DNA of 64,000 bases from contig NC_135901.1 in NCBI RefSeq assembly GCF_964194155.1, forward strand, positions 26,102,001-26,166,000, in the 5' to 3' direction. Both the position numbers and the translations under genes were made by a program. Source of the stretch: Cetorhinus maximus. Its lineage: Eukaryota. The notes below the pieces were generated by a model. That model had not been told where the DNA came from. It saw only the letters and a program-made list of their open reading frames with translations, and made no database searches. Position 1 is the first letter of the stretch, and the number at the start of each line of letters is the position of its first letter. Shown here in pieces: positions 469 through 51,774 of this stretch.

Positions 469-481
469 TTCAGAGCTTCAT

Positions 482-1203
482 CACGTTACCCTCGAGGTGG
501 CTGTGGTGGGGAAGACACTGTTATTCACCTCCTTCTGGAATGTGCCTTTGGAAAGAAGGTCTGGAGAGAGATACAGTGGCTTTTGTCCAAATTCATCCTG
601 AGCAATGCTGTGACACAGGACTCTGTGCTCTACGGGCTGTTCCCAGGGACACGCAGCGAGACAAACATCAACTGCAGCTGGAGGATCATCAACTCGGTGA
701 AAGAAACTTTGGTCTGCCTGAAACTTGTTGGTCTTCCGGTGCAAGGAGTTGTCCCCAGCCGAGTGTTGCAGACTGACACATTCCAAGGTCTAGGACCACA
801 TGCTGAGGGACGCACTAAAGCTTGGGGCAGCCACTGCAAAGGTGCAATGGGGAAAGGTCACTGTCTAAGACCTTTCTGCCACAGTGCACCGAGATGCTGG
901 GAATTGTATGGACCCCTTGGGCTGTACGGCTCACAATGAATGTATGTAGTGAATACTAAATGTATTATAATTGTACCTCAGAGTGCAACATGATGTATGT
1001 TGATAACTCCAATACTATTGCACTGTCTGACAACCTGTAATGACCATAATGAAATGACTGTAATATTCATTGATTGTATTGAAGCACCTCATGATCCATG
1101 TGTAAAAGTTGAATCTGATTGCACTTTTTGTGATGGCCAACTAGAAATGTTTCGTAATGTTCTTTCAGGTGTTTTATGAATAAAGTATATTTTTCAAAAA
1201 AAG
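482..1203 (+). mobile_element. 5'-truncated Tx1/L1-clade LINE (ORF2 C-terminal zinc-knuckle region plus 3' UTR)
   Basis: PRGGCGGEDTVIHLLLECAFGKKVW resembles the zf-RVT CCHC region; AATAAA plus A-tail at 1179-1202; target-site duplications at 467-481 and 1210-1225. Confidence 0.8.
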
Positions 1204-2604
1204 TAAATAAATTTCAGAGCTTCATGCCTAGGCCCTGCCAGCAATGGTGGGGTAATTAAAATCAGGGATGCTCTAAGAGGATAGAATGAGGGGAGCGCAG
1301 ATATATCAGAGAGTGTGAAACTGGAGATTATGGAGATAGGGAGGGTTGAAGTCATGGTTGGATTTGAAAACAAGAATGTAATTTTTAAAATTGAGGCATT
1401 GCTTGACCAGGAGCCACTGTAGGTCAGTGAGTGATGGGTGAACAAGACTTGGTGTGAGAAAGCACATGGGCAGCAGAGTTTTGGATGATCTCACGTTTCC
1501 ATGTTGGGGTGGGGTGAACATGAGAGGCTGATCAGAAATGCATTGGAATCATCGAGTCTAAAGGTAACATGGGCATGGATGAAGGTTTCAGTAGCAGATG
1601 AGCTGGGGTGGGGTGGAGACAGGCGACGTTATGGAGATTGAAATATCTGGTATTAGTGATGGTTAGAAATGTGGTCAGAATGTCATCTTGGGTTCAAATT
1701 GGGCTTTGGTCTTCCCAATTATTAATTGGGGGAAATTTCTGCTTATCCAGTACTGGATGTTGGATAAGCAGTGTGATAATTTAGTAACAGTGGAGGAATG
1801 GAGAGGGATGGTGGTGAGGTAGAGCTGGGCGTTGTCAGTGTACATGTGAAAACTAACATGGTGCTTTTGGATGATGTCACCTAGTGGCAGCCTGTAAATG
1901 AGGAATAGGAGGGACCAATGATAGATCCTTGGGGGACACCATGTACAAGGACTTTGGAGAGGAAAGGGAGGTTGGAGACGGGGTGGTAGTTTGCAAAAAC
2001 GGTGGGTTAAAGAGGTTTTTTTTAGGATGGATGATGACAATGAATTTAAAGGTGAGATGGACAGTATCAAAAAAGAGAGAACTGTTAACAATATCAACTA
2101 ACATGAGGAGGATGGACGGCTAACAGTTTAGTGAGAATAGGGTCAAGGGAGCAGAAGGCAGGTCTCATGGACAAAATTAGCACTGAAGGAGATAGAAGGA
2201 GAAAGACTGGAGAAAGATGCAAATTCAGGGCTTCAACAAGGGGGAACTTTACGGACAGTTTGTCCCGTTGAGCTAGTGGAAGGGAGGGAAGCAGCAGAGG
2301 CAGCTGATCAGCTTGTCTCAATCTTAGTGACGAAGAAGCTCCACGAGTTCCTCACACTTGTTGTTGGAGGTGAGTGTGGATGATACTAGGGAAAGGGAGA
2401 GCACTTCAAAAGGAACAAACTCATGTTAGTTTATGAAAAAGATTCAACAGACTGCGTGTTGAACACAAAGCTCTTTTATTTGGCTTTTATCCATAGTATT
2501 AGCTACAATAACTGGCCTAGAGTTTAATAACATCAGCAGAAACAGACCCCAATGAACAATGGTTCATCCCAAATATGATTAACAGAAAAATACAATCACT
2601 ATTT

Positions 2605-4227
2605 TTACTTGTGAATTCGCTGGTGTACCAGCAGGTTGGATGACTGTGTGAATCCTTTCCCACACTCAGAACAGGTGAACGGCCTCTCCCCAGTGTGAGT
2701 TCGCTGGTGTATCAGCAGGGTGGATGACTGAATGAATCCCTTTCCACACTCGGAACAGGTGAACGGCCTCTCCCCAGTGTGAATTCGCTGGTGTGTCAGC
2801 AGGGTGGATGTCTGACTGAACCCCTTCCCACATTCAGCACAGGTGAATGGCCTCTCCCCAGTGTGAGTGCGCTTGTGTGTCAGTAGGTGGGATGACCGAG
2901 TGAATCCTTTCCCACAGTTGGAGCAGGTGAACGGCCTCTCCCCAGTGTGAACTCGCTGGTGTTCCAGAAGGGTGGACGACCGAGTGAATCCCTTCCCACA
3001 CTCGGAGCATGTGAATGGTCTCTCACCAGTGTGAACTCGCTGGTGTGTCAGCAGGTTGGATGACCGAGTGAACCCTTTCCCACAATCAGCGCAGGTGAAT
3101 GGCCTCTCTCCAGTGTGAGTGTGTTTGTGTGTCAGCAGGTTGGATGAACAAGTGAATCCCTTCTCACAGTCAGAGCGGGTGAGTGGCCTCTCCCCAGTGT
3201 GAACTCGCTGGTGTTCCTGCAGGGTGGATGACCGAGTGAATCCCTTTCCACACTCAGGACAGGTGAACGGCTTCTCCCCAGTGTGAATTTGCTGGTGTGT
3301 CAGGAGGTGGGATGACTGAGTGAATCCCTTCCCACAGTCGGAGCAGGTGAATGGCCTCGCTCCAGTGTGAATGCGCTTGTGTGTCAGCAAGTTGGATGAA
3401 CAAGTGAATTCCTTCCCACAGTCGGAGCAGGGAAACAGCCTCTCCCCAGTGTGAACTCGCTGGTGTTCCAGCAGAGTGGATGACCGAGTGAATCCCTTCC
3501 CACACTCAGAGCATGTGAATGGTCTCTCACCAGTGTGAATTCGCTGGTGGACAATCAGATCAGTTGATCGCCTGAACCCAGTCCCACAGTGAGAGCACCT
3601 GAACGGTCTCTCGTCAGTGTGAACACGTTGATGAAACATCAGATCCCAGGAACTTTTATAGCACTTCCCACAGTCTGGGCATTTAAAAGGTCTCTCGTCA
3701 GTGTGAACTCGCTGGTGTGCCAGCAGGTGGGATGACTGAGTGAATCTCTTCCCACACTCAGAGCAGGTGAATGGTTTCTCCCCAGTGTGAATTCGCTGGT
3801 GTACAGTGAGGTCAGATAATGTCTTGAACCCAGTCCCACAGTGAGAGCACCTGAACGGTCTCTCGTCAGTGTGAACACGTTGATGGCCAGTCAGTTTCCA
3901 GGAACTTTTAAAGCACTTCCCGCAGTCTGGACATTTGAAAGGTCTCTCGTCAGTGTGAACTTGTCGATGTTGCAGCAGATGGGATGAACAAGTGAATCCC
4001 TTCCCACACTCAGAGCAGGTGAACGGCCTCTCCCCAGTGTGAACTCGCTGATGACTTTCCAGCTCTGATGGGTAATTAAATTCCTTCCCACAGTCCCTGC
4101 ATTTCCACAATTTCTCCCTGTTGTGACTGCATTTATGTTCTGACAGGCCAGATGATTGGCTGAAGCCTCGTACACACAAACACGTATAAGGTTTCTCCTC
4201 ACTGTGAATGGTGCTTTTTCCTTCCAT
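2605..4227 (-). CDS. C2H2 zinc-finger protein (type A, about 19 finger units, 2 degenerate), no effector domain
   Basis: Open ORF of CxxC...HxxxH repeats with TGERPF/TDERPF linkers. ATG at 4227 (the ORF-track start at 4233 is TTG); acceptor ttcacAG|G with exon start 4335; AATAAA on minus strand at 2475-2480. Confidence 0.9.
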
Positions 4228-4739
4228 GTTCAAAATCTGATGGTATTCAGGTTATGATAAATTAGGCGACTCTGTCAGATTTTGATGTGATGTTTGGCCT
4301 CAGCTTCCCGACTGCAAATCCTCCCCTTTAATGCCCTGTGAAATTGATTCAAAACAGAATAAGAGACAGAACCCACAAAAACACAAAGGCAGATTGTGAA
4401 TCTGGTAACTTGTGGGACTGGCACTAGGAAAAAGTGACCATGAAAACTGCTGGATTGTCATAAAAACCCAACTGGTTCATTAATGTCCTTCAGAGAAGGG
4501 AACCTGCCACCCAAACTGGTCAACACAAGATTCCAGCTTCGATGGGAGAAGAGAGCAAGAGAGAGAAGCTGTGGGGTGGGAGAGGCAAGGGTTGAAGAAG
4601 AGGGATTTTACATATCTACAAATCAACCAGAACTTTCACAGAACCTCCCAAACCCTCAACCTCCATCACCTAGAGGGACAAGGATAGCAGGTGTATGTGA
4701 ACACCACCATCTCCAAGTTTCCCCTCCAAGTCACACACC

Positions 4740-5830
4740 GTCTTGACTTCTCTGACATCCAGAACTGGATCAACAGAAATTTCCTCCATTTAAATGTTGG
4801 GAAGACCAAATCCATTGACTTCAGTCCCCGCTACAAATTCCACTTCCTAACCATCAACTCCATCCCTCTCGCCGAAAACTGACTGAGGATGAACCAGACT
4901 ATTCACAACAATGGAGAAAAATTTCACCCCAAACTGAGCTTCCAACCACATATGGAATTGTATAAAACACTGGTGAGGCCACAACTGGAGTATTGTGTCC
5001 AGTTCTGGTCACCACATTACAGGAAGGACGTAATAGCTCTGGAGAGAGTGCAGAGGAGGTTTACAAGAATGTTGCCAGGGTTAGAAAAGTGTAGCTACGA
5101 GGAGAGATTAGATAGGTTGGGGTTATTTTCCTTAGAACAAAGAAGGCAGAGAGGTGAATTGATGGAGGTGTACAAAATTATGAGGGGAATAGATAGAGTG
5201 GACAGGATAAAATTGTTTCCCTTGGTGGAGAATTCTAGAGCTAGGGGACATAGATTCAAGACAAGTGGCAGAAGGTGTAGGGGGGACATGAGGAAGAACT
5301 TTTTTTACGCAGAGGATGGTGGGTGTCTGGAATTCGCTGCCCAAGTTGGTGGTAGAAGCAGAAACTTTAAACTCTTTTAAAAAGTACCTGGATCTGCACC
5401 TAAATTTCTGTAAGCTGCAGGGCTACGGGCCGGGTGCAGGAAGGTGGGATTAGAAAGGGCACCTGGGTGTCCTCGGGCTGGCATAGACAAGATGGGCCGA
5501 ATGGCCTCCTCCTGTGCTGTAACTTTTCTATGGTTCTATATCTGCATCATCACTATTACAGTATGCTTCCACCTCAGTAACATTGCCTAACTCCACCCCA
5601 GTCTCAGCTCATCTGCTGCCTCCCACATTCAACCTCCCTGTGATCGTGAGGTCATCCAAAGCTCTGCAGCTCGTGTACCCACTCAGACCAAGTCTTGTTT
5701 ACCCTTCACCCCTGTGCTCACTGACCTACAAGGCTCCTGATTCATAAAACTCCTGTGCAACACCTTGGAAAGGTCGAATACATGAAAGGTGTTTTACAAA
5801 TACAAATTGCTGTTGTTGATTTTGAACATT
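4740..5830 (+). mobile_element. Decayed L2 fragment in the ZNF intron (hosts a CR1 insertion)
   Basis: DIQNWINRNFLHLNVGKTKSI L2 motif; paralogous to 11915-13530 and 33510-33980. Confidence 0.6.
4951..5538 (+). mobile_element. CR1 LINE 3' fragment
   Basis: LYKTLVRPQLEYCVQFWSPHYRKD...LERVQRRFTRMLPG; 3' tail ttctatggttctat; empty site in the paralogue near 12120-12135. Confidence 0.9.
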
Positions 5831-6224
5831 TCATCATAACTTGGTGAAAATCCTGTAACTCCTTATTTAATATCATTGTGGGACCATCTACACCAGATGG
5901 ACTGCAGCGGTTCACAAAGGTCAAACATCATCTTCTCCACAGGTAACTGGGGATTGGTAATATCTGCTGCTGGAATTGTTAGTGAAAGGGCAGGGGATGG
6001 GATTAGCTGATTGGCTCTAGCAGAGATCCAGCATAGGCAGGATGGGCTGAATGACCTCTGTCTGTATTGTAACTAATCAGTGATTCAATGACTCGATGAA
6101 AAAGAAGCTACACTGAAGGCCAGGGAACTAACTTCTACAACCAATGCCTCCCCTGCAACAAACCAGCTTTAAATTAGTCTGTTGGTGATTCTAGACTCAG
6201 TTCTGTGAGCGACGTCTGCAACAA

Positions 6225-6340
6225 AATAATAGCAAAATACTGCAGCTGCTGGAAATCTGAAACAAAAAGAGCAAATACTGGAAATACTCAGCAGATCAAG
6301 CACTAACTGTGGAGAAACAAACAGAGTTATCATTTCAGTG
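6225..6340 (-). mobile_element. Penelope-like terminal-repeat fragment
   Basis: Reverse complement of the ...tctccacagatgctg...ctgctgag...tttccagca... motif at 49900-49965 and 59520-59575; paralogous copy at 13915-14035. Confidence 0.5.
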
Positions 6341-6776
6341 TGTACAGAATGAATTACAGGGAATAAAAATGGTCCAAAGCTTGATGGAAAATATAAGCTC
6401 AGAAGCAGAAGAGAAATGGACTATAATGCAGGAAAAACAATTCCTGACTCTGAAAGATACTCTGGGAAGATAAAGCTGGTAAACTAACAGCACATGGTCA
6501 GGGGATGGACAGTGGTGGGAACCTCATTTCGACATGGTTGGCAGGAGTAACAGTAAAATGCTAAACACGTCTAAAACACACCATTATTGGAGACAGAGGA
6601 AGTTAGACCATGGCAGAGAGGTGATCAGGGAGATAAGGCAGAGCTGAAATGGAACAATGGAAGGACATGGATTCAAATCCACAGCAAAGGAGCCACACCA
6701 GCCCCAGAGCCATGGAACCTCTCACAGACAACAGAGCAGAGCACTAAAAGATCTAAATTGCAGTCAAAATACTCAC

Positions 6777-6945
6777 CTCTGAAACAATTTTACTCTTTTC
6801 AATATTAAAATCTCCTGCTGGAGCCTGCAGCTGAAAAGATATCGGAAGCACTGGAGTCAGAGAAAAATCTCCCAGTTGAGGAAATACCTGGGGAGTGGGG
6901 GTGATGTCACCGCTCAATTGTCGGTGTGTGATGACATCACAGACA
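6777..6945 (-). promoter_or_regulatory. Putative non-coding first exon and promoter of ZNF 2605-4227
   Basis: Strong donor cagag|GTGAGT (intron starts 6776 on minus); ETS-like CGGAAG near 6843; two TGATGTCA/TGACATCA motifs at 6902-6940. Confidence 0.5.
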
Positions 6946-6974
6946 CGAACACAGAACATCTGGGTCTGTGCAAA

Positions 6975-7800
6975 CCAGTGATCACCACACATTATGAAGG
7001 ATGTGAGGGTCTTTGAGAGGGTGCAGGGGAGATTTACCAGAATGGTTCAGGGATGATGGTTTATAGTCACATTGTTAGGCTGGTAAAACTGAGGTTGGTC
7101 TCCTTGAAGCAAAGCACTGGAGGGGGTGCAGAGGAGATTCACCAGGATGTTGCCTGGGATGAAACATTTAAGTTATGAAGAGAGGTTGGATAGACTTGGG
7201 TCATTTTCGTTGGAGCAGAGAAGACTGAGGGGCGACTTGATCGAGGTGTACAAGATTATGAGGGGCATGGACAGGGTGGATAGGGAGCAGCTGTTCCCCT
7301 TAGTTAAAGGGTCAGTCACAAGGGTCATAAATTCAAGGTGAGGGGCAGGAGGTTTAGGGGGGGGTATGAGGAAAAACTTGTTTACCCAGAGGGTGGTGAC
7401 GGTCTGGAATGCGCTGCTTGGGAGGGTGGTGGAGGTGGTTTGCCTCACATCCTTTAAAAAGTACCTGGATGAGCACTTGGCACGTCATAACATTCAAGGC
7501 TATGGGCCAAGTGCTGGTAAATGGGATTAGGTAGGTAGGTCAGGTGTTTCTCACGTGTCGGTGCAGACTTAATGGGCCGAAGGGCATCTTCTGCACTGTG
7601 ATTCTGTGAAAGTGAGATTTGACAGAGGTGTACAAGTTTATAATAGATTTAGGTAAGGTAGGCAAAGGAAAGCTGTTCCCATTATTTGACTGTAAAAGGT
7701 TTGTGGGACACAAATTTCAAATTTTCCACAAGATCTACAGGGAGGATGTGAGGAAGAAATTTTTTGCAACGAGTGGTAATAACCTGGAACTTAATGCTTA
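6975..7800 (+). mobile_element. Older CR1 3' fragment hosting a younger CR1
   Basis: CR1-like ORF2 C-terminal sequence on both sides of 7115-7608 (EVYKFIIDLGKVGKGKLFPL). Confidence 0.65.
7115..7608 (+). mobile_element. Young CR1 3' fragment (ATTCTGTG-tail family)
   Basis: QRRFTRMLPGMKHLSYEERLDRLG; near-identical to 12810-13267 and 16575-17074; flanked by a short aaag duplication. Confidence 0.9.
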
Positions 7801-7829
7801 CACTTAAATGCTGATCAAATCCAGGTCCT

Positions 7830-9830
7830 ACATATGAACATATGAATTAGGAGCAGGAGTAGGCCACTCAGTCCCTCGAGCCTGCTCCGCCACTCAATAA
7901 GATCATGGCTGATCTGAATGTAACCTCAACCCCACATTCCCACCTACTCCCAGTAACCTTTCACCCCTTTGTTTATCAAGAATCTATCTAGCTCTGCCTT
8001 AAAAATATTCAAAGACTCTGCTTCCACCACCTTTTGAGGAAGGGTTCCAAAGACTCACCACCCTCTGAGAAAAAAATTCTCCCCATCTCTGTCTTAAATG
8101 AGCGACCCCTTTTTAAACAGTGACCCCTCGTTCTAGATTCTCCCACAAGAGGAAATATCCTCTCCACATCCACCCTGTCGAGACCCCTCAGGATCTTAAA
8201 GATTTCAATTAAGTCGCCTCTTACTCTTCTAAATTCCAGTGGATACAAGCCTAACCTGTTCAACCTTTCCTCATTAGACAACCCACCCATTCCCGGGTAT
8301 TTGTCTAGTAAAGCTTCTTTGAACTGCTTCTAATGTATTTACATCTTTCTTTAAATAAGGAGACCAGAACTGTACATGATATTTCAGATGTGGTCTTACT
8401 AATGCTGTGTACAACTGAAGCATAACCACCCTATTTTTATACTTAATTCCCCTCACAATAAATGATAACATTCTATTAGCTTTCCTAATTACCTGCTGTA
8501 CCTGCATATTAGCCTTTTGTGGTTCATGCATTAAGACACCCAGATCCCTCTGAATCTCAGAGCTCTGCAATCTCTCACCATTTAGCTAAGCTTGTTTTAT
8601 TCTTCCTGCCAAAATGAACAATTTCACATCTGCTGACATTATATTCCATTTGCCAGATCTTTGCCCACTCACTTAACCTATGCCATGTAGTCTCCTTACA
8701 ACTTCTTCACAATTTACTTTCCTACCTATATTTGTCGTCAGCAAATTTAGCCACCATTCCTTCATCCAAGTCATTTACATAAATTGTAAAAAGTTGAGGC
8801 CCCAGCACTGATCCCTGTGGCACACCACTCATCACATCCTGCCAAATAGAAAAAAACCCATTTATGCCAACTCTCTACTTCCTGTTGGCTAGCCAATCTT
8901 CTATCCTTGCCAATATGTTACCTCCTACACCATCAGCTTTTATTTTCTGCAATAACCTTTGATGTGGCACTTTATCAAATAGCTTCTGGAAATCTAAATA
9001 CAGTACATCCAGCAGTTCCCCTTTATCGACAGCCAGATGTGGCCCATTCAACAAACTCCAATAAATTGGTTAAACATGATCTCCCTTTTACAAAATCATG
9101 CTGACTCTGCCTGATTGCCTTGAATTTTTCTAAGTGCCCTGCTATAATATCTTTAATAATAGCTTTTCATGTTTTCCCTATGACAGATATTACACCAACT
9201 GGCCTGTAGTTTCCTGCTTTCTGTCTCCCTCCCTTTTTGAATACCATTTGCTATTTTCCAATCCAATGGAACCTCCCTGAATCTAGGGAATTTTGGAAAA
9301 TTAAAACCAATGATCTCACTAGCCACTTCTTTCAAGGGTGAAGTCCATCCAGACCTGGGTATTTCTCAGCCCGCAGCCCCAACAATTTGCTTAATACCAT
9401 TTCCCTGGTGATTGTAATTTTCCTGAGTTCCTCCCTCCCTTCCATTTCCTGATTTACAACTATTTCCGGGATGTTCCTTGTGCCCTCTATACTGAAGATT
9501 GAAGCAAAATACCTGTTTAATTCATCCATCATCTCCCTACTTTCCATTATCAATTCCCCAGATGCACTTTCTAGAGGACTAACAGTCACTCTTTTCCTTT
9601 TTAAATATCTACAGAAACTCTTACTATCCGTCTTTATATTACTAGCTAGTTTTCTCTCATACTCTAATTTTTACCTCCTTATTAATCTTTTTATCGTCCT
9701 TTGCTGTTCTTATATTCTTTCTAATCTTCTGACCTGCCACACATCTTTATGTGATTACATATTTTTTCTTTAAGTTTGATACTGTATTTAACTTTTTTGG
9801 TTAACCACGAATGGTGGGCCCTCCCCTTGG
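7830..9830 (-). mobile_element. 5'-truncated, frameshifted CR1 LINE
   Basis: Fragmented ORF2 peptides (LYTALVRPHLKYHVQFWSP; KYPGLDGLHP; MDELNRYFASIF); 3' tandem tail acatatgaacatatgaa at 7830-7847. Confidence 0.9.
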
Positions 9831-10100
9831 GAGATGGGATGGTAGTTTGCAAAGATGGTGGGGTAAAGGTTTGTTTCTTCTCAGGAGGGTGATGGTGGTG
9901 GATTTTAAGGTGAGTGGGACAGAGAAGAGAAAGAGAACCATTAACAATATCAGCTAACATGGTGAAAATGGATGGTCAGCAGTTTCGTGAGAATAGGGTC
10001 AAGGCAGTAGAAGGCAGGTCTCATTGATAGGATGAGCTCTGAGAGGGCAAGAGGGGAGATAGGAGAGAAAGAGAGCACTTCAAAAGGATCTAACTTGTGT
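9830..10100 (-). mobile_element. L2 fragment downstream of the second ZNF
   Basis: Homologous to 1970-2420, part of the duplicated gene unit. Confidence 0.6.
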
Positions 10101-10273
10101 TAGAGATGTTACAATGACTCGACACACTGTATGTTTAACATAAGGCTGATTTATTTGACTTTATCCAGAATACTAACCCCTATAATTGGCATGGAGTTTA
10201 ACATCAGCAGAAACAGACCAAATGACATAGTTCAGTCCTGGATGTGAATAACAGAAAAATCCAATCACTGTAG

Positions 10274-11395
10274 TTACTTGTGAACTCGCTGGTGTCTCAG
10301 CAGGTTGGATGAGGTAGTGAATCCCTTCCCACACTTGGAGCAGGTGAACGGTCTCTCCCCAGTATGAACTCTTTGGTGTGTCAGCAGGTTGGATGACTGA
10401 GTGAATCCCTTCCCACAGTCGGAGCAGGTAAATGGCCTCGCCCCAGTGTGAACTCGCTGCTGTGTCAACAGGGCAGACGACTGAGCGAATCCCTTCGCAC
10501 ACTCGGAGTGGGTGAACGGCCTCTCCCCAGTGTGAACTCGCTGGTGTGCCAACAGGGTGGATGCCTGACTGAATCCTTTCCCACAGTCGGAGCAGACGAA
10601 CGGTCTCTCCCCAGTGTGAGTGCGCTGGTGTGTCAGCAAGTTGGATTTCTGAGTGAACCCCTTCCCACAGTCGGAGCAGGTGAAAGGTCTCTCCCCAGTG
10701 TGAATGCGCTGGTGTACAGTTAGTTGAGATGAGTGCCTGAACCCAGTTCCACAGTGAGAGCACCTGAACGGTTTCTCATCAGTGTGAACACGTTGATGGA
10801 GCATCAGGTCCACGGAACTTTTAAAGCATTTCCCACAGTCTGGGCATTTAAAAGGTCTCTCCCCAGTGTGAACTCGCTGGTGTGTCAGCAGATGGCATGA
10901 GTGAGCAAATCTCTTCCCACACTCAGAGCAGCTGAATGGCCACTCTACTGTGTGAATTCGCTGGTGTACATTGAGGACAGACAATGTCTTGAACCCAGAC
11001 CCACAGTGAGAGCACCTGAACGGTCTCTCGTCAGTGTGGACACGTTGATGGGCTGTCAGTTCCTGGGAACTTTTAACGCACTTCCCGCAGTCTGGACATT
11101 TGAAAGGTCTCTCGTCAGTGTGAACTCGTCGGTGTTTCAGCAGCGTGGATGAACAAGTGAATCCCTTCCCACACTCAGAGCAGGTGAACGGCCTCTCCCC
11201 AGTGTGAACTCGCTGATGATTTTCAAGCTCGGATGGGTAATTAAATCCCTTCCCACAGTCTCTGCATTTCCATGGTTTCTCCCCATTCTGACTGCATTTA
11301 TGTTTCGACAGGCCAGATGATTGGCTGAAGCCTCGTCCACACACAGAACACGTGTACGGTTTCTCTCCACTATGAACGGTGCTTTTTCCGACCAT
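10274..11395 (-). CDS. C2H2 zinc-finger protein (type A, 13 finger units, 2 degenerate)
   Basis: Open ORF with ATG at 11395; acceptor ttcacAG|G with exon start 11499; AATAAA on minus strand at 10150-10155; first 8 fingers collinear with 2605-4227. Confidence 0.88.
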
Positions 11396-11914
11396 GTTCA
11401 AATTCCAATGATATTCAGGTTACAATAAGCTGGGCAACTCTGTCAGATTCTGAAGTTTGGTTTCAGTTTCCCGATTGCAAATCCTCCCCTCCTAATACCC
11501 TGTGAAATTGACTGAAAACAGAGAAAAGGGAGTGAGAGAGAACCCCCAAAAACACAAGGACAGGTTGTGAAATTGAGCTGAATGAATCTGGTAATTTGTG
11601 GGGCCAGCACCAGGAAAAAGTGACCATGAAAACTGCTGGATTGTCATAAAAACCCAACTGGTTCACTAATGTCCTTCAGGGAAGGGAATCTCCCACCCAG
11701 TCTGGGCCTACACGAGACACTGGTCTAGATTGGAGAACATAACAAGAGAGAGAAGGGTTGGGTGGGAGAGGCAAGGTTGAAAAAGAGGGATTACAACTCC
11801 ATCAGAATTTTGACAGAAGGTCCAAAACCCTGAACCTCCACCACCTAGAAGGGCCAGGATAGCAGGTGTATGTGAACACCATCAACTCCATGTTCTCCTT
11901 CAAGTCACACACCG

Positions 11915-14387: not shown

Positions 14388-17074
14388 TCTTGTGTTAAGG
14401 AGTCAGTTACTGCAGTAAGGAGAGATGATATCTTGGAGGGGGCATCGAATGAAGCTTTGTGGATAGTGCTTAGGAATAAAAAAGGGGCAGCCACATTGTT
14501 AGGTGTTTATTATAGACCCCCAGATAGTCAGCGGGAAATTGAGGAGCAAATATCCACAATTTGTGGAGGTGTGTAAAAACAATAACAATAGGGTAAACAT
14601 ATTAGGTGATTTCAACTTTCCCAACATTAATTGGGATAGACATAGTGTCAAGGGCTTGGATGGAGTGGATTTCTTGAAATGTGTACAGGAGAACTTTTTA
14701 GGTCAATATGTAGAGGGTCCAACAAGGGACAGCACAGTGCTGGACCTAATTCTGGGGAATGAAGCCAGACAGGTGGCTGAGGTGGTGGTGGGCAAGCATT
14801 TTAGCGATAGCGACCACAACATGGTACAGTTTAAGCTTGTTATGGACAAAGAAATCGACAAATTGCAAAAAATTGTTTGGGATTGGGGGAGAGTGGATTT
14901 TCATAAAATAAGGCAGGATCTGGCCAAGGTAGACTAGGGAACAGTTACTTGTGGGGACATCTACAGAGGAGCAGTAGGGGGTGTTCAAAAAGGAAATGGG
15001 GAGGGTACAGGCTCAACATTTTCCCTCTAGGGTGATAGGAAGGAGTAACAAGCCCAGAGAACAATGGATGACCAGGTTACGATAAGAAGGAAAAGAGAGG
15101 CTTTTAGCAGGTACAAGGGAAGCAAATCAGCAGAGGCATGAGTGGAGTTCAGAAAATGCAGCGTGGAGCTTAAGAAACCAATTAGGAAAGCAAAGAGGGG
15201 ATATGAGAAAGCTCTGGCTGGTAAAAATAGGGAAAATCCCAAGATATTCTATTAGTATATCAATGGGAAGAGGATAACCAGGGAAAAAGTAGGGCCTAAA
15301 AGGGACCAAGGGGGAAATCTATGGGTGGAGCCAGAGAACATCACTAGAGTGTTGAATGAATGTTTCACATCCGTCTTCACCCAGGAGAATGAGGATGAAG
15401 GTATGGAACTCGGAGAGAAAGACTGCGAGGTTATTAAGCAAATTGATATAGGGAGTGACAAGGTATTGGAGTGTTGGCAGGCTTAAAAGTGGACAAATCT
15501 CCAGGTCCAGATGATTTGTGTGCCAGACTGCTGAGGGAGGCAAGGGAGGAGATCGCAGGGGCACTGACCCAAATTTTTAATTCCACTCTGGCCACAGGGG
15601 AGGTTCCAGAGGACTGGAGAACAGCTAATGTGGTTCCGCTATTTAAGAAGGGTTGTAGAGATAAGCCAGGGAACTACAGGTCATTAAGTCTCATGTCAGT
15701 GGTAGGGAAACTATTGGAGAAAGTTCTGAAGGAGAGTATCTATCTCCACTTGGAGAGGCAAGGTTTGCTCAGGGATAGTCAGCATGGCTTTGTCAGAGGG
15801 AGGTCATGCCTAACAAATTTGATTGACTTTTTTGAGGAGGTGACCAGGTGTGTTGATGAGGGTAGTGCAGTTGATGTAGTTTATATGGAATACAGCAAAG
15901 CCTTTGACAAGGTCCCACATGGGAGACTTATAAAGAAGGCAAATGCACATGGGATACAGGGTAATTTGATGAGGTGGATTCAAAATTGGCTTAGTTGTAG
16001 GAGGCAGAGGGTGATGACAGAAGGATGCTTTAGTGACTGGAAGCCAATGTCCAGTGGCGTACCACAGGGATCTGTGCTCGGTCCCCTATTATTTGTCATT
16101 TATATAAAACGACATAGATGACTATGTGGGGAGGGTGTAGGATTAGTAAGTTTGCGGATGACACAAAGATTGGCCAGGTAGTTAACAGTGAGGTTGAGTG
16201 TCTTGGGTTACAGGAAGATATAGACGGGATGGTCAAATGGGCAGATAAGTGGCAGATGGAATTGAACCCTGAAAAGTGTGAAGTAATACACTTTGGAAGG
16301 AGTAATTTGACAAGGAAGCATTCAATGAACGGCATGACACTAGGAAATTCTGAGGAACAAAGGGACCTCGGCGTGTGTGTCCATAGATCTCAGAAGGCAG
16401 AGGGGCATGTTGGTGGGGTGGTGAAAAAGGCATATGGGACACTTGCCTTTATCAATCAAGGCATAGATTACAAAAGTAGGGAGGTCATGTTGGAGTTGTA
16501 TGGAACCTTGGTGAGGCCACAGCTGGAGTACTGTGTGCAGTTCTGGTCGCCACATTATAGGAAGGATGTGATTACACTGGAGGGGGTGCAGAGGAGATTC
16601 ACCAGGATGTTGCCTGGGATGAAACATTTAAGTTATGAAGACAGGTTGGATAGACTTGGGTTGTTGTTGTTGGAGCAGAGAAGACTGAGGGGCGACCTGA
16701 TCGAGGTGTACAAGATTATGAGGGGCATGGACAGGGTGGATAGGGAGCAGCTGTTCCCCTTAGTTGAAGGGTCAGTCACAAGGGGGCATAAGTTCAAGGT
16801 GAGGGGCAGGAGGTTTAGGGGGGAATGTGAGGAAAAACGTTTTTACCCAGAGGGTGGTGACGGTCTGGAATGCGCTGCCTGGGAGGGTGGTGAGGCGGGT
16901 TGCCTCACATCCTTTAAAAAGTACCTGGATGAGCACTTGGCACGTCATAACATTCAAGGCTATGGGTCAAGTGCTGGTAAATGGGATTAGGTAGGTAGGT
17001 AGGTCAGGTGTTTCTCATGTGTCAGTGCAGACTCGATGGGCCGAAGGGCCTCTTCTGCACTGTGAGATTCTGTG
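14388..17074 (+). mobile_element. Young 5'-truncated CR1 LINE, APE endonuclease plus RT, disrupted
   Basis: ILGDFNFPNINW and SDHN (APE); [34 protein letters not shown] (RT); tail gattctgtg. Confidence 0.95.
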
Positions 17075-20832: not shown

Positions 20833-21651
20833 TCAGGAGGCATCATGACTGAGTGAATCCCTTTCCACACACATAGAGTTGAATGGTCTCTTCTCAGTGT
20901 GAATGCGTTGGTGGGTCAGCAGGTTGAAAGACTTTGCAAATCCCTTCCCACACAGCGAGCAAGTGAATGGTCTCTCCCCAGTGTGAACTCGCTGGTGTGC
21001 AGTGAGATTGGATGACCGATTGAATCCTTTCCCACACACGGAGCAGATGAACGGTCTCTCCCCAGTGTGAACTCGATGATGTAAAACGAGGTTGGAAGAC
21101 TGCCTGAACCTCTTTCCACAGTAAGTGCAGCTGAATGGCTTCTCCTCAGTGTGAGTTCGCAGGTGTCTCAGCAGGGTGGGCAAAACCGTGAATCCCTTCC
21201 CACACGTGGAGCAGGTGAACGGTCTCTCCCCAGTGTGAACTCGCTGGTGTAATGCTAGGTTGGATGACTGAGTGAATCTCTTACCACACTCAGAGCAGGT
21301 GAACAGCCTCTCCCCAGTGTGAGTGCGTTGGTGTGCAGTGAGGGCAGAAGAATGCCTGAATTTCTTCCCACAGGAAGTGCAGTTGAATGGTTTCTCCTCA
21401 GAGTGAATTCGCTGGTGTGACCAAAGGCCAGATGACTGAGTGAATCCCTGCCCACACACAGGGCAGGTGAACGGCCTCTCCCCGCTATGAACTCGCTGGT
21501 GTAATGATAGGTTGGATGACTGAGTGAATCCCTTTCCACACTCGGAGCAGGTGAACGGCCTCTCCCCAGTGTGACTGCGTTGATGGTTTTCCAGCAGGGA
21601 TGGGTAACTGAATCCTTTCCCACAATCATCACATTTCCACAGTTTCTCCAT
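20833..21651 (-). CDS. C2H2 zinc-finger protein (type B, 9 intact fingers; 10th frameshifted)
   Basis: ATG-initiated MEKLWKC...; the ancestral end HQQVHK* lies in another frame at about 20810-20835; acceptor exon start 22007; AATAAA on minus strand at 20583-20588. Confidence 0.75.
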   Translation of the reverse strand: MEKLWKCDDCGKGFSYPSLLENHQRSHTGERPFTCSECGKGFTQSSNLSLHQRVHSGERPFTCPVCGQGFTQSSGLWSHQRIHSEEKPFNCTSCGKKFRHSSALTAHQRTHTGERLFTCSECGKRFTQSSNLALHQRVHTGERPFTCSTCGKGFTVLPTLLRHLRTHTEEKPFSCTYCGKRFRQSSNLVLHHRVHTGERPFICSVCGKGFNRSSNLTAHQRVHTGERPFTCSLCGKGFAKSFNLLTHQRIHTEKRPFNSMCVERDSLSHDAS

Positions 21652-22044
21652 TGTGTGGGTGCGTTTGTGTTCCTATAGGTTGGACAATTGCTTGAAGCCT
21701 CATCCACACAGAACATGTGCACAGCTTCTCCCTCCTGTGAATACTGTGATGTTTTCCTCAGGCTGTGTGACTGGTTAAAACTCTTCCCACAGTCAGTTCA
21801 CTGGAACACTCTCTCTCGGGTCTGTGTCTTGGTGCTGTTCCAGTCACACTGATGTTTGAAATCTTTTCCCTCAGACAGAACAAACATTTCTTCTTCCACA
21901 TTCAAAGGCGGATGATATTGAGGTCCCGATGAATGGAATGACTCAACCAAAACTTGATATGAGGTTTGATCTGAATTTCACTTCTGCAATCCTTCACTTC
22001 GAAGTGGCTGTGAAAGAAGTTCACTAAAGTCATCACCATAGGTA

Positions 22045-26661: not shown

Positions 26662-28121
26662 GGCATTAGAAAGGGAGGATTTACAGACGGGAAACTCAAA
26701 CCAAACATCACGTCAAGATCTGACAGAACCACTCGATGCATCTGGACCTGAATATCATTGGCCTTTAAACGTGAAGGAGAAATACTTGTCTCTTCTGTCT
26801 GTGGGAAAAGATTTCAAACATCAGTGTGACTGGAAAAATAGAGACACACACACCTGAGTGAGAGTGTTCCAGTGCACAACTGTGGAAAGAGCTTTAACCA
26901 GTTGGCCTGAAAAAGCATCACATTGTTCACAGTGGGAGAAACTGTACATGTGTTGTGTGTGTGGATGAGGCTTCAACTAATCATCCAACCTGGAGAGACA
27001 CATGGACACGGGGACCATGGAGAAACTGGAAATGTGAGGACTGTGGGAAAGGATTCAATTATCCATCCCTTCTGGAAATCCATCGACGTAGCCACATTGG
27101 GGCCGGCACCATGGAGAAACCGTGGAAATGTGAGGACTGTGGTAAAGGATTCTATTATCCACACCAGCTGGAAATGCATCGACGCAGTCGCACTGGGGAG
27201 AAGCTGTTCATCTGTTCCGTGCGTGGGAACGGATTTACTTGAACATCCTGCCTCATGTTACATCAGCAAATTCACACTGAAGAGAGGACGTTCAGCTGCA
27301 CATACTGTGGAAAGAGGTTCAAGCGGTCATCCCATCTCACTGCACATCAGCAACTTCACACTGGGGAGAGGCTATTCACCTGCTCTGTGTGTGGGAAGGG
27401 ATTCACTCATTCATCCGGTCTTCAGTCACACCAACAAATTCACACTGAAGAGAAGGCATTCAACTGTACTTCCTGTAGAAAGAGGTTCAGGCATTCATCT
27501 GCCCTTGTTGAACACCAGCGAGTTCACGCTGGGGAGAGGCCATTCACCTGCTCTGTGTGTGGGAGGGGATTTGCTCGGTCATCCACCCTGCTGTCACACC
27601 AGTGAATTCACACTGGGGAGAGACCGTTTTACTGCACTTGCTGTGGAACGAGGTTCAGGTGTTCAGCCGACCTCGATTCACATAAGCGAGTTCACACCGG
27701 GGAGAGGCCATTCACCTGCTCTGTGTGTGGGAAGGGATTCACTCAGTCATCCACCCTGCTGACACACCAGCGAGTTCACACTGGGGAGAAGCCATTCAGC
27801 TGCACTTCATGTGGGAAGAGTTTCAGGCTGTCATCCACCCTCACTGCTCACCAACGCACACACACTGGGGAGAGACCGTTCACCTGTTCCGTGTGTGGGA
27901 AGGGATTCACTCAGTCTGGGAGCCTGCAATTACACGAACGCACTCACACTGGGGAGAAGCCAATCACCAGCTCCACATGTGGGAAGGGATTCACTCAGTC
28001 TGGCAGCCTGCATTTACATGAACGCACTCATACCGGAGAGAAGCCATTCACCTGCTCCGTGTGTGGGAAGGGATTCACTCAGCCTGGCAGCCTGCTGAGA
28101 CACCAGCGAGTTCACAAGTGA
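26662..28121 (+). pseudogene. C2H2 ZNF pseudogene (type B, about 13 fingers, two in-frame nonsense codons)
   Basis: ORFs 26955, 27255 and 27723 share one frame broken by TGA at 27240 and 27603; acceptor ttcacAG|G at 26661; duplicated first finger; AATAAA 28346-28351. Confidence 0.85.
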
Positions 28122-31945: not shown

Positions 31946-32983
31946 TTACTTGTGAACTCGCTGATGCTTCAGTAGGTGGGATGTCTGAGCGAATCCCTTC
32001 CCACACTCGGAGCAGGTGAACGGCCTCTCCCTGGTGTGAATTCGCTGGTGTACAGTGAGTTGAGATGATTTCCTGAACCTAGTCCCACAGTGAGAGCACT
32101 TGAACGGCCTCTCGTCAGTGTGAACACGTTGATGCGACATAAATTCCCAGGAAGTTTTATAGCACTTCCCGCAGTCTGGGCATTTAAAAGGTCTCTCATC
32201 AGTGTGAACTCGCTGGTGTTTCAGCAGGGTGGATGATTGAGTGAATCCCTTCCCACATTTAGAGCAGGTGAATGGCCTCTCCCCAGTGTGAAGTCGCTGG
32301 TGTACAATGAGTTGAGATGATCGCTTGAATCCAGTCCCGCAGTGAGAGCACCTGAACGGTCTCTCGTCAGTGTGAACACGTTGATGGGACATCAGTTCCC
32401 AGGAACTTTTATAGGACTTCCCACATTGTGGGCATTTAAAGGGTCTCTCATCAGTGTGAACACGTTGATGGGACATCAGTTCCCCAGAACTTTTAAAGCA
32501 CTTCCCGCAGTCCAGACATTTAAAAGGTCTCTCGTCAGTGTGAACTCGCTGGTGTCTCAACAGGGTGGATAAATGGGTGAATCCCCTCCCACACTCTGAG
32601 CAGGAGAATGGTCTCTCCCCAGTGTGAACTCGCTGATGTTTCAGCAGGTTGGAGGAATCAGTGAACCCTTTCCCACATGCAGAGCAGGTGAACAGCCTCT
32701 CTCCAGTGTGAACTCGTTGGTGTGTTAGCAAGTTCGATGATCGAGTAAATCCTTTCCCACATATGGAGCAGATGAATGGTCTCTCTCCAGTGTGAGTGCG
32801 TCGATGAGTTTCCAGTTCAGACGGGTAACCAAATGCCTCCTCACAGTCCCCACATTTCCACGGTTTCTCCCCTGTGTGAATGCGCTTGTGTCTTGACAAA
32901 CCAGATGATTGGCTGAAGCCTCGTCCACACACAGAACATATGTAAAGTTTCTCCCCACTGTGAATGGCGCTTTTTCCTTCCAT
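31946..32983 (-). CDS. C2H2 zinc-finger protein (type A, 12 intact fingers)
   Basis: Open ORF with ATG at 32983; acceptor exon start 33091; AATAAA on minus strand at 31816-31821. Confidence 0.9.
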
Positions 32984-34029
32984 GTTCAAAATCCAATGTA
33001 TTCAAGTTACGATAAACTGGACGACTCCGTCAGACCCTGATGTGATGTTTGGTCTCAGTTTCCATCATGCAAATCTTCTCCTTCTGACACCCTGTGAAAT
33101 CAATTTAAAACAGGAAAAAAGGAGTGAGAGAGAACCCACAAAAACACTCAGGCAGGTTGTGAAATTGAGCTGAAAGAATCTGGTAATTTGTGCGGCCGGC
33201 ACAAGGAAAAAGTGACCATGAAAACTGCTGGATTGTCGTAAAAACTCAACTGGTTCACTAATGTCCTTCAGGGAAGGGAACCTGCTACCCGGTCTGGGCC
33301 TATAGAAGACTCGAGCCTCCATGTGGAGAGGAGAGTGAGAGAGGATTGGGATCAGGCGCAGAGAAGGAGAGGGATTTTCTATTTCCGCAACTTGACCAGA
33401 ACTTTGACAGACTTTCCAAAACACTCAACCCCCAGCACCTAGAGGAACAGGATAACAGGTGTATGTGAACAGCATCACCTCCAATCTCCCCTCCAAGTTA
33501 CACTCCGTCCTGACTTGTCTGACATCCAGTACCGGATGAACACAAATTTCCTCCATTTAAACATTGGGAAGACTGAAGCTATTCCCTTCAGTCCCCACTA
33601 CCAACCCTAGACACTGACTCCAGCCCTCTCCTTGACAACAGTCTGAGTCTGAAACATTGGTGTCATATTTGACCCCAAGGCAAGCTCCCAACCGCATATT
33701 AGCATCATCGTCAAGACTAGATTCCACCTCAGTGACATCGCCAGACTCCACCCCAGCCTCATCTCATCTGCTGCTGAAACTATCATCCATCCCTTTGTTA
33801 CCTCCAAGATATCTATGCTCCTCTAATTCTGACTTCCCGAGTATTCCTGATTTTATTTGCTCCACGTTTGGTGGCCACATCTGCAACTGCCAAGATCTTA
33901 AGCTGCGGAATTTTCTCCCTAACCCTCTCCACCTTTCTATCTTCCTTTCCTTCTTTCAGATACTCCTGAAAACTGACTTCAGCTTCTGGTACCCTGTCAG
34001 TCTACAGAAGCAATCACTAGTTGTCAGGA

Positions 34030-34493: not shown

Positions 34494-37377
34494 GACTGGG
34501 GGTCTGAAATGCATTTGTTTCAATGCGAGAAGTATAACAGGCAAGGCAGATGAGCTTAGAGCTTGGATTAGTACTTGGGGCTATGATGTTATTGCTATTA
34601 CAGAGACTTGGTTGAAGGATGGATAGGATTGGCAGATAAACGTTCCAGGATTTAGATGTTTCAGGCAGGATAGAGAGGGATGTAGAAGAGATGGGGGAGT
34701 TGCACTGCTGGTTAAGGGGAATATCACAGCTGTACAACAGGAGGACACCTCATTGGGCTCATGCAGCGAGGCAATATGGGTAGAGCTCCGGAATAGAAAA
34801 GGTGCAGTCTCAATGTTGGGGTTTTACTATAGGGCTCCCAATTGCCGGAGGGAGATTGAGGAACAGTTATGTCGGCAGATTTTGGAAAGATGTAAGAGCA
34901 ATAGGGTTGTTGTGGTGGGTGATTTTAACTTTCCCTATATTGACTGGGAATCACTTAGTGCTAGGGGTTTGGATGGTGCAGAATTTGTAAGGTGCATCCA
35001 GGAGAGCTTCCTGAGACAATATGTAGATAGTCCAACGAGGGAAGGGGCAATACTGGACCTGGTATTAGGGAATGAACCCGGCCAGGTGGTCGAATTTTCA
35101 GTAGGAGAGCATTTTGGGAAAAGTGACCATAATTCAGTAAGTTTCAAGGTACTGGTGGATAAGGAAAACAGGAGTCCTCGGGTTAAGGTGCTTAATTGGG
35201 GGAAGGCTAATTATAACAATATTAGGCAGGAACTGAGGAATCTAGACTGGAGGAGAATGTTTGAGGGCAAATCAACAACTGACATGTGGGGGGCTTTCAA
35301 ATGTCAGTTGATAAGAATTCAGGACCGGCATGTTCCTGCTAGGATGAAGGATAAGCATGGCAAGTTTCAGGAACCTTGGATAACGAAGGATATTGTGAGA
35401 TTAGTCAAAAAGAAAAGGGAAGCATTCGTAAGGGCTAGAAGGCTGGGAACAGATGAAGCCCGTGGAGAATACAAAGAAAGTAGGAAGAACCTTAAGCAAG
35501 GAGTCAGGAGGGCTAAAAGGGGTCATGAAAAGTCACTGGCAACCAGGATTAAGGAAAATCCCAAGGCCTTTTATACATATGTAAAGAGCAAGAGGGTAGC
35601 CAGGGAAAGGGTGGGCCCACTCAGGGACAGAGGTGGGAATCTGTGTGTGGAGCCAGAAGAAATGGGAGAGATACTGAATGAATACTTCTTATCAGTATTC
35701 ACCAAAGAGAAGGACTTAGCGGTCGATTTGTCTAGGGAAGAGTGTGTAGATAGCCTGGATCATGTTGAGATCAAAAAAGAGGTGTTAGGCGTCTTGAAGA
35801 ATATTAAGGTGGATAAGTCCCCAGGGCCAGATGGGATCTACCCCAGAGTACTGAGGGAGGCAAGGGAGGAGATTGCTGGGGTCTTGACAGAAAGCTTTGT
35901 ATCCTCACTGGCTACGGGTGAGGTCCCAGAGGACTGGAGAATGGCCAATGTTGTTCGATTGTTTAAGAAGGGTAGCAGGGATAATCCAGGAAATTACAGG
36001 CCGGTGAGCCTTACGTCAGGGAAATTATTGGAGAAGATTCTTCGTGACAGGATTTAATACCATTTGGAAGCAAATGGGCGTATTAGTGAGAGGCAGCATG
36101 GTTTTGTGAAGGGGAGGTTGTGTCTCACTAACTTGATCGAGTTTTTCGAGGAAGTGACAAAGATGATTGACGATGGAAGGGCAGTGGATGTTATCTACAT
36201 GGATTTCAGTAAGGCCTTTGACAAGGTCCCTCATGGCAGACTGGTACAGAAGGTAAAGTCGCACGGGATCAGAGGTGAGCTGGCAGGATGGATACAGAAT
36301 TGGCTTGGTCATAGAAGACAGAGGGTAGCAGTGGAAGGGTGCTTTTCTGAATGGAGAGCTGTGACTAGTGGAGTTCCGCAGGGATCAGTGCTGGGACCTT
36401 TGCTGTTTGTGGTATACATAAATGATTTGGAGGAAAATGTAACTGGGCTAATTAATAAGTTTGCAGACGACACCAAGGTTGGAGGAGTTGCAGATAGTGA
36501 AGAGGATTGTCAAAGGATACAACGGGATATAGATCGGTTGGAGACTTGGGCGGAGAAATGGCAGATGGAATTTAATCTGGACAAATGCGAGGTAATGCTT
36601 TTTGGAAGGTCTAATACAGGCAGGAATTACACAGTAAATGGCAGAACCCTTAAGTGCATCGACGGGCAGAGGGATCTGGGTGTACAGGTCCACAGGTCAC
36701 TGAAAGTGGCAACGCAGGTGGATAAGGTAGTCAGGAAGGCATATGGCATGCTTCCCTTCATTGGCAGGGGTATTGAGTATAAAAGCTGGGAAGTCATGCT
36801 GCAGCTGTATAGAACCTTGGTTAGGCCACACTTGGAATATTGCGTGCAATTCTGGTCACCACATTAGCAGAAGGATATGGAGGCATTGGAGAGGGTGCTG
36901 AGGAGGTTTACCAGGATGCTGCCTGGTCTGGAGGTTATCAGCTATGAGGAGAGGTTGGAGAAACTCGGATTGTTCTCACTAAAGCGACGGAGATTGAGGG
37001 GCGACTTGATAGAAGTTTACAAAATTATGAATGGCATGGACAGAGTAGATAGTCAGAAGCTTTTTCCCAGGGTGGAAGAGTCAATTACTAGGGGACATAG
37101 ATTTAAGGTGAGAGGAGAAAACTATAAAGGTGATGTGCGGGACAAGTTTTTTACGCAGAGGGGAGTGCGTGTCTGGAATTCGCTGCCAGAGATGGTGGAA
37201 GCAGGTACGATAGTGGTGTTTAAGAGGCAGCTTGACAAATACATGAATAGGATAGGAATAGAGGGATACGGACCCCGAAAGTGCAAAATGTTTTAGTTGA
37301 TGGGCAATATGATCGGCGCAGGCTTGGAGGGCCGAAGGGCCTGTTCCTGTGCTGTACTTTTCTTTGTTCTTTGTTCA
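34494..37377 (+). mobile_element. Young CR1 with essentially complete ORF2 (APE plus RT), inactivated by nonsense codons
   Basis: Starts at CFNARS...IAITETWL; ORFs 34753, 36064 and 36877 are all in one frame; GDFN, SDHN, QGSVLGP, FADD; tail ttctttgttctttgttc. Confidence 0.95.
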
Positions 37378-41935: not shown

Positions 41936-43265
41936 CATGGCTGATCATCCAACTCAATAGCCTGCTGCCGCTTTCTCCCCATATCCTTTGATCCTTTTCG
42001 CCCCAAGAGCTATAACTAACTCCTTCTTGAAAACATACAATGTTTTGGCCGCAACTACTTTCTGTGGTAGTGAATTCCACAAGCTCACCACTCTCTGGGT
42101 GAAGACATTTCTCCTCATCTCAGTCCTAAATGGTTTAACCCGTATCCTCAGACTGTGATCCCTGCTTCTGGACTCCCCCGCCATCGGGAACATCCTTCCT
42201 GCAACTAACCTGTCTAGTCCTGTTAGAATTTTATAGGTTTCTATGAGATCCTCCCTCATTCTTCTGAACTCCAGCGAATATAATCCTAACCGATTCAATC
42301 TCTCCTCATATGACAGTCCTGCCATCCCAGGAATCAGTCTGGTAAACCTTTGCTTCACTCCCTCAATAACAAGAACATCCTTCCTCAGATAAGGAGACCA
42401 AAACTGCATACAATATTCCAGGTGTGGTCTCACCAAGACCCTGTACAATTGCAGCAAGACATCCCTATTCCTGTACTCGAATCCTCTGGCTAGGAAGGCC
42501 ATTTGCCTTCTTTACCACCTGCTGTACCTGCATGCTTACCTTCAGCGACTGGTGTATGAGGACACCCAAATCTCGTTGCACATTCCCCTCTCTCAATTTA
42601 TAGCCATTCAGATAATCTGCCTTCCTGTTTCTGCTTACCCCTTTAAATTAAATTAAACCTTTTGGAAGATACTTAACATCAATTACCAAAGGGCCGTTCT
42701 TCCCTGCTCCTTGTTGTCACAGAATATAGCCCTTACAAATGATGAACTACAAAATAAGATCTTAAAAACTATAAGCGATAAAAATAGTAAATACTTACCC
42801 GACTGTACTCTCAGTACTTAAAGGATCACCTCGTTCCCTCATCACCAAACTCCCTCAGTCATCTCTGCTCTCCCAGCTTCTCTTCACCTCCGACACCTCT
42901 CGCGCTCCTGTTCAACTCCCAGCTCCTCTCGCGCTTTTCAACTCCCGGCTCCTCTCGCGCTTCTCTTCAACTCCCGGCTCCCCTAGCGTTTCTCTTCAAC
43001 TCCCGGCTCCCCTAGCGTTTCTCTTCAACTCCCGGCTCCTCTCGCGCTTCTCTTTAACTCCCGGCTCATCTCGCGCTTCTCTTCAACTCCCGGCTCATTT
43101 CGCGCTTCTCTTCAACTCCCGGCTCCCCTAGCGTTTCTCTTCAACTCCCGGCTCCTCTCACGCTTCTGTTCAACTCCCGGCTCCTCTCATGCTCTTTTTC
43201 AACTCCTGGCTCCTCTCTCACTCCTTTTCGACTCCCGGCTCCTCTCGCGCTTCTTTTCAACTCCT
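41936..43265 (-). mobile_element. CR1: ORF2 3' end (41936-42640) joined to a probable 5' UTR with a tandem array
   Basis: ORF 41954-42502 LLQLYRVLVRPHLEYCMQFWSP; junction ...aatttaaaggggtaagcagaaacaggaaggc near 42640. Confidence 0.7.
42890..43265. repeat. About 29-bp tandem repeat (cttcaactcccggctcctctcgcgcttct), about 12-13 copies
   Basis: Visible periodicity with CpG-rich variant units. Confidence 0.9.
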
Positions 43266-50960: not shown

Positions 50961-51034
50961 AACCAGTGAACCCCTAATATCTGTTTCAGCACACAGGTAG
51001 ATCGATTTTTCCACAGGGATGAAGGTGAAGAGAA

Positions 51035-51672: not shown

Positions 51673-51774
51673 CTTTAAAGGGACAAAGAGAGAACCAGAT
51701 GGATAGAATGGTGATGCTTTATGACATCAGTGCAGTGCCTGGGATCTAACCTCCCTGAACCCTGCTCGATATTG

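Follow-up and report, generated by a model that had tools for sequence, protein, structure and literature searches.

Contact residues of finger-only C2H2 zinc-finger genes in the shark Cetorhinus maximus: conservation among young copies and probable episodic diversifying selection on older branches

Introduction

Positive selection has been described in lineage-specific expansions of genes encoding tandem C2H2 zinc fingers (poly-ZF genes; Emerson and Thomas 2009, PMC2604467), and in mammals, frogs and bony fish its action on the finger residues that contact DNA is established. A second closely comparable system is that of the cyprinid FiNZ zinc-finger (ZNF) genes (Wells et al. 2023, PMC10547256), for which repression of transposable elements was shown and positive selection was reported in only four of seven clades, with enrichment at contact residues in two. 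The codon tests described there concern zebrafish only, although the supplement has at least five cartilaginous-fish species rows, with 475-3586 ZNF open reading frames; the word 'Shark' does not occur in the main text of PMC2604467. Literature searches, limited to listings and the opening lines of abstracts and covering few subscription journals, showed no codon test on shark ZNF genes. Here we analyze a 64,000-nucleotide stretch of the Cetorhinus maximus genome (contig NC_135901.1, positions 26,102,001 to 26,166,000; hereafter the window) that carries two finger-only C2H2 ZNF genes on the minus strand, which we call A and B, together with their relatives elsewhere in the genome.

Contact codons of this family are conserved among young intact copies, and on older branches they changed faster than synonymous sites. 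The likely explanation is that young copies keep their contact residues while older lineages changed theirs under episodic diversifying selection. Selection for change would be episodic rather than continuous because young duplicates conserve these residues.

Results

Contact codons change on older branches and are held among young copies

To sample the family we fetched 100 stretches, in which we found 108 genes, 68 of them intact; the 40 broken genes were left out. As the finger arrays are repeats of one three-finger module, three-finger modules served as the units of test. Removal of 26 duplicates reduced 93 modules to 67, and removal of four mistyped ones left 63 unique modules. Helix positions -1, +2, +3 and +6 were treated as contact positions and the remainder as framework, and branches were classed as older or young by non-helix distance.

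On older branches the ratio of nonsynonymous to synonymous rates (dN/dS) at contact codons was 1.67 (p = 5e-5), compared with 0.37 on young branches, while framework codons gave 0.29-0.31 in both classes. The older-branch value was 1.58 (p = 5e-4) when shared double hits were allowed, 1.39 (p = 0.006) and 1.88 (p = 3e-5) at two alternative cluster cut-offs, and 1.98 when the 24 modules of the subfamily containing A and B (the A/B subfamily) were masked. The module tree was built from all sites; a framework-only tree, with a contact dN/dS of 1.45 (p = 8e-4), was set aside as it probably overstates contact homoplasy. Individually, eight of the 12 contact columns had older-branch values of 1.9-3.1, with position +1 at 0.2-0.3 and position +5 at 0.8-1.2. 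Taken together, positions -1, +3 and +6, the fastest-changing sites of poly-ZF expansions, reached 1.77 (p = 3e-5). Contact positions also made up nine of the 12 top-ranked columns under site model M8. A pairwise estimate that uses no tree placed contact dN/dS at 2.25 between clades (bootstrap 1.4-4.0) and 0.4 within them (0.15-0.8), and none of 60 neutral simulations, run with or without conversion on star trees lacking CpG effects, exceeded 1.6.

The conservation of young copies extends to whole arrays. In 11 young clusters, a test that omitted all singletons and six intact genes without a detected W finger, contact dN/dS was 0.53, below 1 (p = 7e-5) and above the framework value of 0.32 (p = 0.004). 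Within clades, first and second positions of contact codons differed at 0.006, compared with 0.026 for intron sequence (132 of 133 pairs, which are not independent). In the young clade of locus L047, for which 15 unique genes of 21 copies were used and six were dropped for stop codons, contact dN/dS was 0.78 (p = 0.41), and 0.53 (p = 0.065) once a converted helix, described below, was removed.

The A/B pair and its nearest relatives

Genes A and B, whose contrast first drew attention to the family, lie as follows.

2605..4227, minus strand: coding exon of gene A, 540 amino acids, C2H2 fingers only (17 canonical plus degenerate ones)
3520..4023, minus strand: fingers 3-8 of gene A, two T-K-R three-finger modules (T, K and R being finger-type labels of the present analysis)
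10274..11395, minus strand: coding exon of gene B, 373 amino acids, C2H2 fingers only (11 canonical plus degenerate ones)
10685..11188, minus strand: fingers 3-8 of gene B, collinear with those of gene A

A preliminary description of the window had placed both reading frames correctly and had reported that A and B differ mainly where the fingers touch DNA. When the two are registered on their second finger, fingers 3-8 align without gaps, and its count proves exact: 14 of 24 contact positions differ, whereas the remaining positions do so at 12 of 144 (Fisher p = 9.3e-8), with the helices it quoted, SSWKLTG against SSQELTA and RSTDLIV against HSSQLTV, present in A and B. Over fingers 2-8 the figures are 15 of 28 and 13 of 168. 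By itself the pair is weak evidence of selection. The proportion of nonsynonymous differences at contact codons (pN, 0.336) equals that of synonymous differences at the same codons (pS, 0.323; five differences over 15.5 sites) yet is double the framework pS of 0.155, so that the pair alone does not decide between a dN/dS of 1 and one above 1; we accordingly rejected its pairwise dN/dS as a selection test, since it does not separate selection from relaxation.

Finger collinearity with A and B is kept in 20 paralogues on the same chromosome, and these 20 genes, 12 of them intact, were aligned as a local set. In the 12 intact genes contact dN/dS (0.76) exceeded that of the framework (0.24; p = 9e-7). 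By branch, it was 0.13 in young clades and 1.12 on older branches (difference p = 3e-4). The preliminary description had ascribed the contact differences to diversifying selection, to be recognized by a contact dN/dS above 1 in a partitioned comparison and by site models M7 and M8. Among the 12 closest intact paralogues that attribution fails on both counts, the partitioned value being 0.76 and M8/M7, fitted with our own codon code, being null. Its interpretation is thus unsupported for the A/B pair and nearest relatives and partly supported at the level of the family, where the signal lies on older branches.

Routes of contact-residue change

Three contact residues were plainly changed in one event by the copying of a recognition helix within a single gene. 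Four genes of the L047 clade (L047-L049 and L051) carry the helix QSSRLLR where sister loci (L052-L054, L059, L060 and L101-L123) have TSFNLLR (20 of 23) or TSFNLLT (3 of 23, loci selected by this pattern); converted and sister loci lie at 40-65 Mb of the contig. Converted and sister fingers differ by seven bases within 12 and by none elsewhere, and all seven agree with another finger of that gene, located three places further downstream. The copied tract is shorter than 41 bases, being bounded by flanking mismatches; L105 and L119 retain the donor finger alongside an unconverted one, and the four converted genes nest, with weak support, among their sisters. Same-gene donors are not enriched across the family, accounting for six of 74 clustered differences where 7.3 were expected and for three of 47 at contact codons where 3.1 were expected.

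Decay of CpG sites is a second route. At position +2 of finger 4, relatives have the arginine codon CGG; the codons of A (TGG) and of B (CAG) are both products of CpG decay. The threonine-to-histidine change at position +3 of finger 3 in gene A is a two-base change that is merely compatible with copying (background match 0.28-0.32). We rejected its reading as a three-base change with a synonymous passenger, as the passenger occurs in one comparison gene only.

Selection weighed against relaxed constraint, conversion and mutation

A number of results weigh against selection as the cause of the older-branch excess. Across all branches of the 63 modules contact dN/dS was 1.25 (p = 0.051); M8/M8a gave p = 0.023, or p = 0.10 with double hits, and M2a/M1a gave p = 0.36, or p = 0.82 with double hits. 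Measured against the contact codons' own synonymous rate, the older-branch excess had p = 0.051. In the 12 local intact genes the contact value of 0.76 did not differ from 1 (p = 0.17), M2a/M1a and M8/M8a were null in addition to M8/M7, and the older-branch value of 1.12 was close to 1 (p = 0.60); in all 20 local genes the older-branch value was 1.38 (p = 0.16). The split into older and young branches was first made with data already seen, the codon models are our own MG94-type code rather than PAML or HyPhy, the tree is star-like in its deep part, recombination affects the modules, and the genes, chosen as best BLAST hits, number 108 out of some 5,700 first-look candidates. Finally, allowing contact codons their own rates of double and triple change lowered the older-branch value to 1.27 (p = 0.12), and with these data the contact excess and multi-base jumps cannot be separated.

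This last result is an argument for a rival account, which we regard as possible though the less probable one: contact residues would drift for a while under relaxed constraint in redundant copies, and pieces of helix copied from other fingers would alter several bases together and mimic a dN/dS above 1. Multi-nucleotide changes are about six times commoner at contact than at framework codons (0.050 versus 0.008), a model that includes them is favoured at p = 6e-6 and takes up the excess, the helix copy in the L047 clade is one clear templated case of such a jump (seven bases within 12, in four genes), and older branches of the A/B subfamily fit a dN/dS of 1. The model with contact-specific multi-nucleotide rates is, however, conservative because two selected steps in quick succession resemble one double change. 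Relaxation and jumps also sit poorly with the absence of enrichment for same-gene donors, and the copies expected to be most redundant, the young duplicates, are constrained rather than relaxed. Nor did neutral conversion of helix patches between lineages raise contact dN/dS beyond 1.2 (12 simulations). The synonymous rate beside contact codons is lower, at 0.68 of that elsewhere, not higher, which argues against a local synonymous hot spot.

It is improbable that the excess instead reflects concerted evolution of the framework, in which conversion would homogenize non-contact DNA, old differing helices would be retained and the synonymous yardstick would be too short. Some distant fingers are indeed identical in framework DNA yet four helix bases apart, and in some A/B-subfamily pairs four-fold divergence (0.05-0.11) falls below that of the flanking intron (0.13-0.15). 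Yet the intron evolves at 0.79 of the framework synonymous rate in a joint fit, and between clades divergence rises from 0.178 in the intron to 0.244 at framework four-fold sites and 0.353 at contact codons (70 of 105 pairs, 35 being dropped for having under 200 intron columns). With an intron rate no higher than that of framework synonymous sites, the yardstick has not been shortened, although the intron may be under constraint of its own. In 24 simulated runs, conversion that left contact codons untouched gave values of 1.6 at most.

A mutational artefact of fast-mutating, CpG-bearing contact codons is largely refuted: despite a fitted CpG multiplier of 5.7 and the decay seen at finger 4, the older-branch value remained 1.50 (p = 0.0012) with that multiplier modelled, young intact and broken copies have no such contact excess, and on branches to broken copies contact (0.48) and framework (0.45) codons behave alike, so that the mutability of these codons does not explain the excess.

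Gene structure and genomic setting

Fingers of A and B fit C-X2-C-X12-H-X3-H at a spacing of 28 residues with TGEKP-like linkers, as in tandem Kruppel-type poly-ZF proteins. Pfam matches include PF00096 and PF13465; among the families considered (25 of 30 for A, 24 of 24 for B) all are of zinc-finger type, with no effector family and no match to KRAB (PF01352), SCAN or BTB. The remaining features are as follows.

4228..4335, minus strand: 5' portion of the gene A exon, running from a putative splice acceptor to the ATG (acceptor predicted from sequence)
6777..6900 (5' end approximate), minus strand: putative non-coding upstream exon of gene A, with a GT donor at 6776-6775 (predicted from sequence)
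11396..11499, minus strand: 5' portion of the gene B exon; stops lie in frame ahead of the ATG
31946..33001, minus strand: third intact member of this family within the window, which supplies one module to the wider-family test

The segment 4228..4335 holds two stops in the ZNF frame, which prevents any coding exon upstream from being read through the putative acceptor into the gene A fingers; between acceptor and ATG this frame is interrupted by stops in A and B and in 94 of the 101 genes scored. The exon leaders (4228-4335 and 11396-11499 in the window, and those of loci L021, L072-L074 and L080) resemble decayed peptide in frame with the fingers and are open in seven of 101 genes. The open leaders suggest that an older form of the gene may have had an N-terminal extension. 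In the three closest copies of gene A (L001:7831-9393, L004:7539-8681 and L006 near 7100-8200) the family start codon is lost and a new ATG lies five codons downstream. Sequence at the putative first exon of gene A (6701-6843) matches 43266-43415 at 84% in opposite orientation; no counterpart of this exon was found upstream of gene B. The listed contigs of four presumed-RNA runs, which are short, multi-mapping contigs, did not show the predicted intron joint.

The window lies on a 65-Mb contig (our C24) of a 3.99-Gb genome. Close matches to A/B-family genes, at 79-98% identity, extend along this contig from 0.9 to 64.5 Mb, as in a lineage-specific expansion (each genome search returned about 5,700-6,100 first-look candidates, of which 40 were scored). 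Genes A, B and that at 31946-33001 occur together again near 21.4 Mb and near 22.3 Mb, at 93-98%, and A also recurs with the third gene near 24.8 Mb; these genes thus duplicate in blocks. Thirteen copies of a 264-amino-acid gene (L084-L096) are spread over 22 Mb (39-62 Mb), and their nine-finger fingerprint is identical in 11. A search with whole proteins returned generic ZNF proteins at 39-57%, and the first 70 residues of B were closest to two shark proteins, at 74% and 71%, among 120 proteins listed.

Elsewhere in the window, a second ZNF type with a 'MEKPWKC'-like lead occurs at 20833-21797, 26898-28121, 47392-48530, 53202-53270 and 57871-58491, as genes or remnants. Intact and broken copies both occur, and the two near 21.7 and 26.9 kb stand head to head. 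Broken pieces of ORF2 (the second open reading frame) of long interspersed nuclear elements, with endonuclease and reverse-transcriptase domains, lie between genes at 15459-16990 and 34627-37296 (four of five open reading frames scanned). We take these remnants to be CR1. Stretches at 50955-51726 and 42775-43304 resemble tandem repeats, their translations repeating in several frames.

Discussion

Episodic diversifying selection on older lineages would fit a cycle of the following kind. Finger-only C2H2 paralogues multiply by block duplication along one contig, and purifying selection holds the fingerprint of young copies. An occasional copy would then fix several contact changes, by point mutation, by CpG decay of arginine codons and sometimes by helix copying between fingers; the changed array would bind a new DNA motif, and during renewed amplification of the gene the new fingerprint would again be held. 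KRAB zinc-finger proteins bind transposable elements and silence them through TRIM28; by analogy with these and with FiNZ-ZNF genes, the likely driver would be young transposable elements, and we propose that the effector-less proteins act by site occupancy or by recruiting partners through their fingers.

A more specific version of this cycle, which we put forward tentatively and consider rather unlikely, is that one specificity is multiplied tenfold or more and then maintained by purifying selection, the function residing in copy number itself (targets being occupied with no repressor domain involved), with new specificities arising in single jumps, partly by helix copying in the same array. 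If true, it would amount to combinatorial retargeting in paralogues, unlike the steady arms race by point mutation described for young KRAB-ZNF genes. More generally, selection on contact residues of effector-less genes in a cartilaginous fish, if true, would mean that retargeting of ZNF arrays is independent of KRAB or FiNZ. The timing, with young copies conserved, older ones changed and many multi-base steps, provides named gene pairs for testing both retargeting and the role of copy number.

Among known systems, the PRDM9 zinc-finger minisatellite is alike in that variation is concentrated at contact residues (PMC6116924). Conversion between fingers of one array occurs there as well, a process of which the shark family shows one clear case without family-wide enrichment. 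Its repeats are almost perfect, 84 bp long and homogenized within the array, whereas the shark arrays alternate three finger types and same-type fingers of one gene stand 18-20 of 84 bases apart; the A/B family also lacks a PR/SET domain, and its diversity lies among paralogues. Tetrapod KRAB zinc-finger genes likewise form clusters of paralogues with the array in a single exon, and one copy may be conserved while another changes contact residues, according to the same source; genes A and B differ in having no KRAB, SCAN or BTB match among the Pfam families given above and in lacking an open frame that continues from an exon upstream. FiNZ-ZNF genes of zebrafish Chr 4q are alike in comprising hundreds of KRAB-less ZNF genes on one transposable-element-rich chromosome. 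They have an exon for the N-terminal domain, in contrast to the in-frame stops before the ATG of A and B, which judged by this closed frame, with no FiNZ profile scan made, are not FiNZ-ZNF genes.

The shark family also resembles the poly-ZF expansions (PMC2604467): in both, C2H2 fingers stand in tandem arrays at 28 residues, paralogues arise and are lost, fingers are gained and lost, and change is fastest at -1, +3 and +6 and slower at +2 and +5. Short gene conversions are described in those expansions as well. Recent expansions there gave very strong M7/M8 results (human p = 3e-82), whereas the shark family conserves its youngest copies and gives a modest signal, seen on older branches only.

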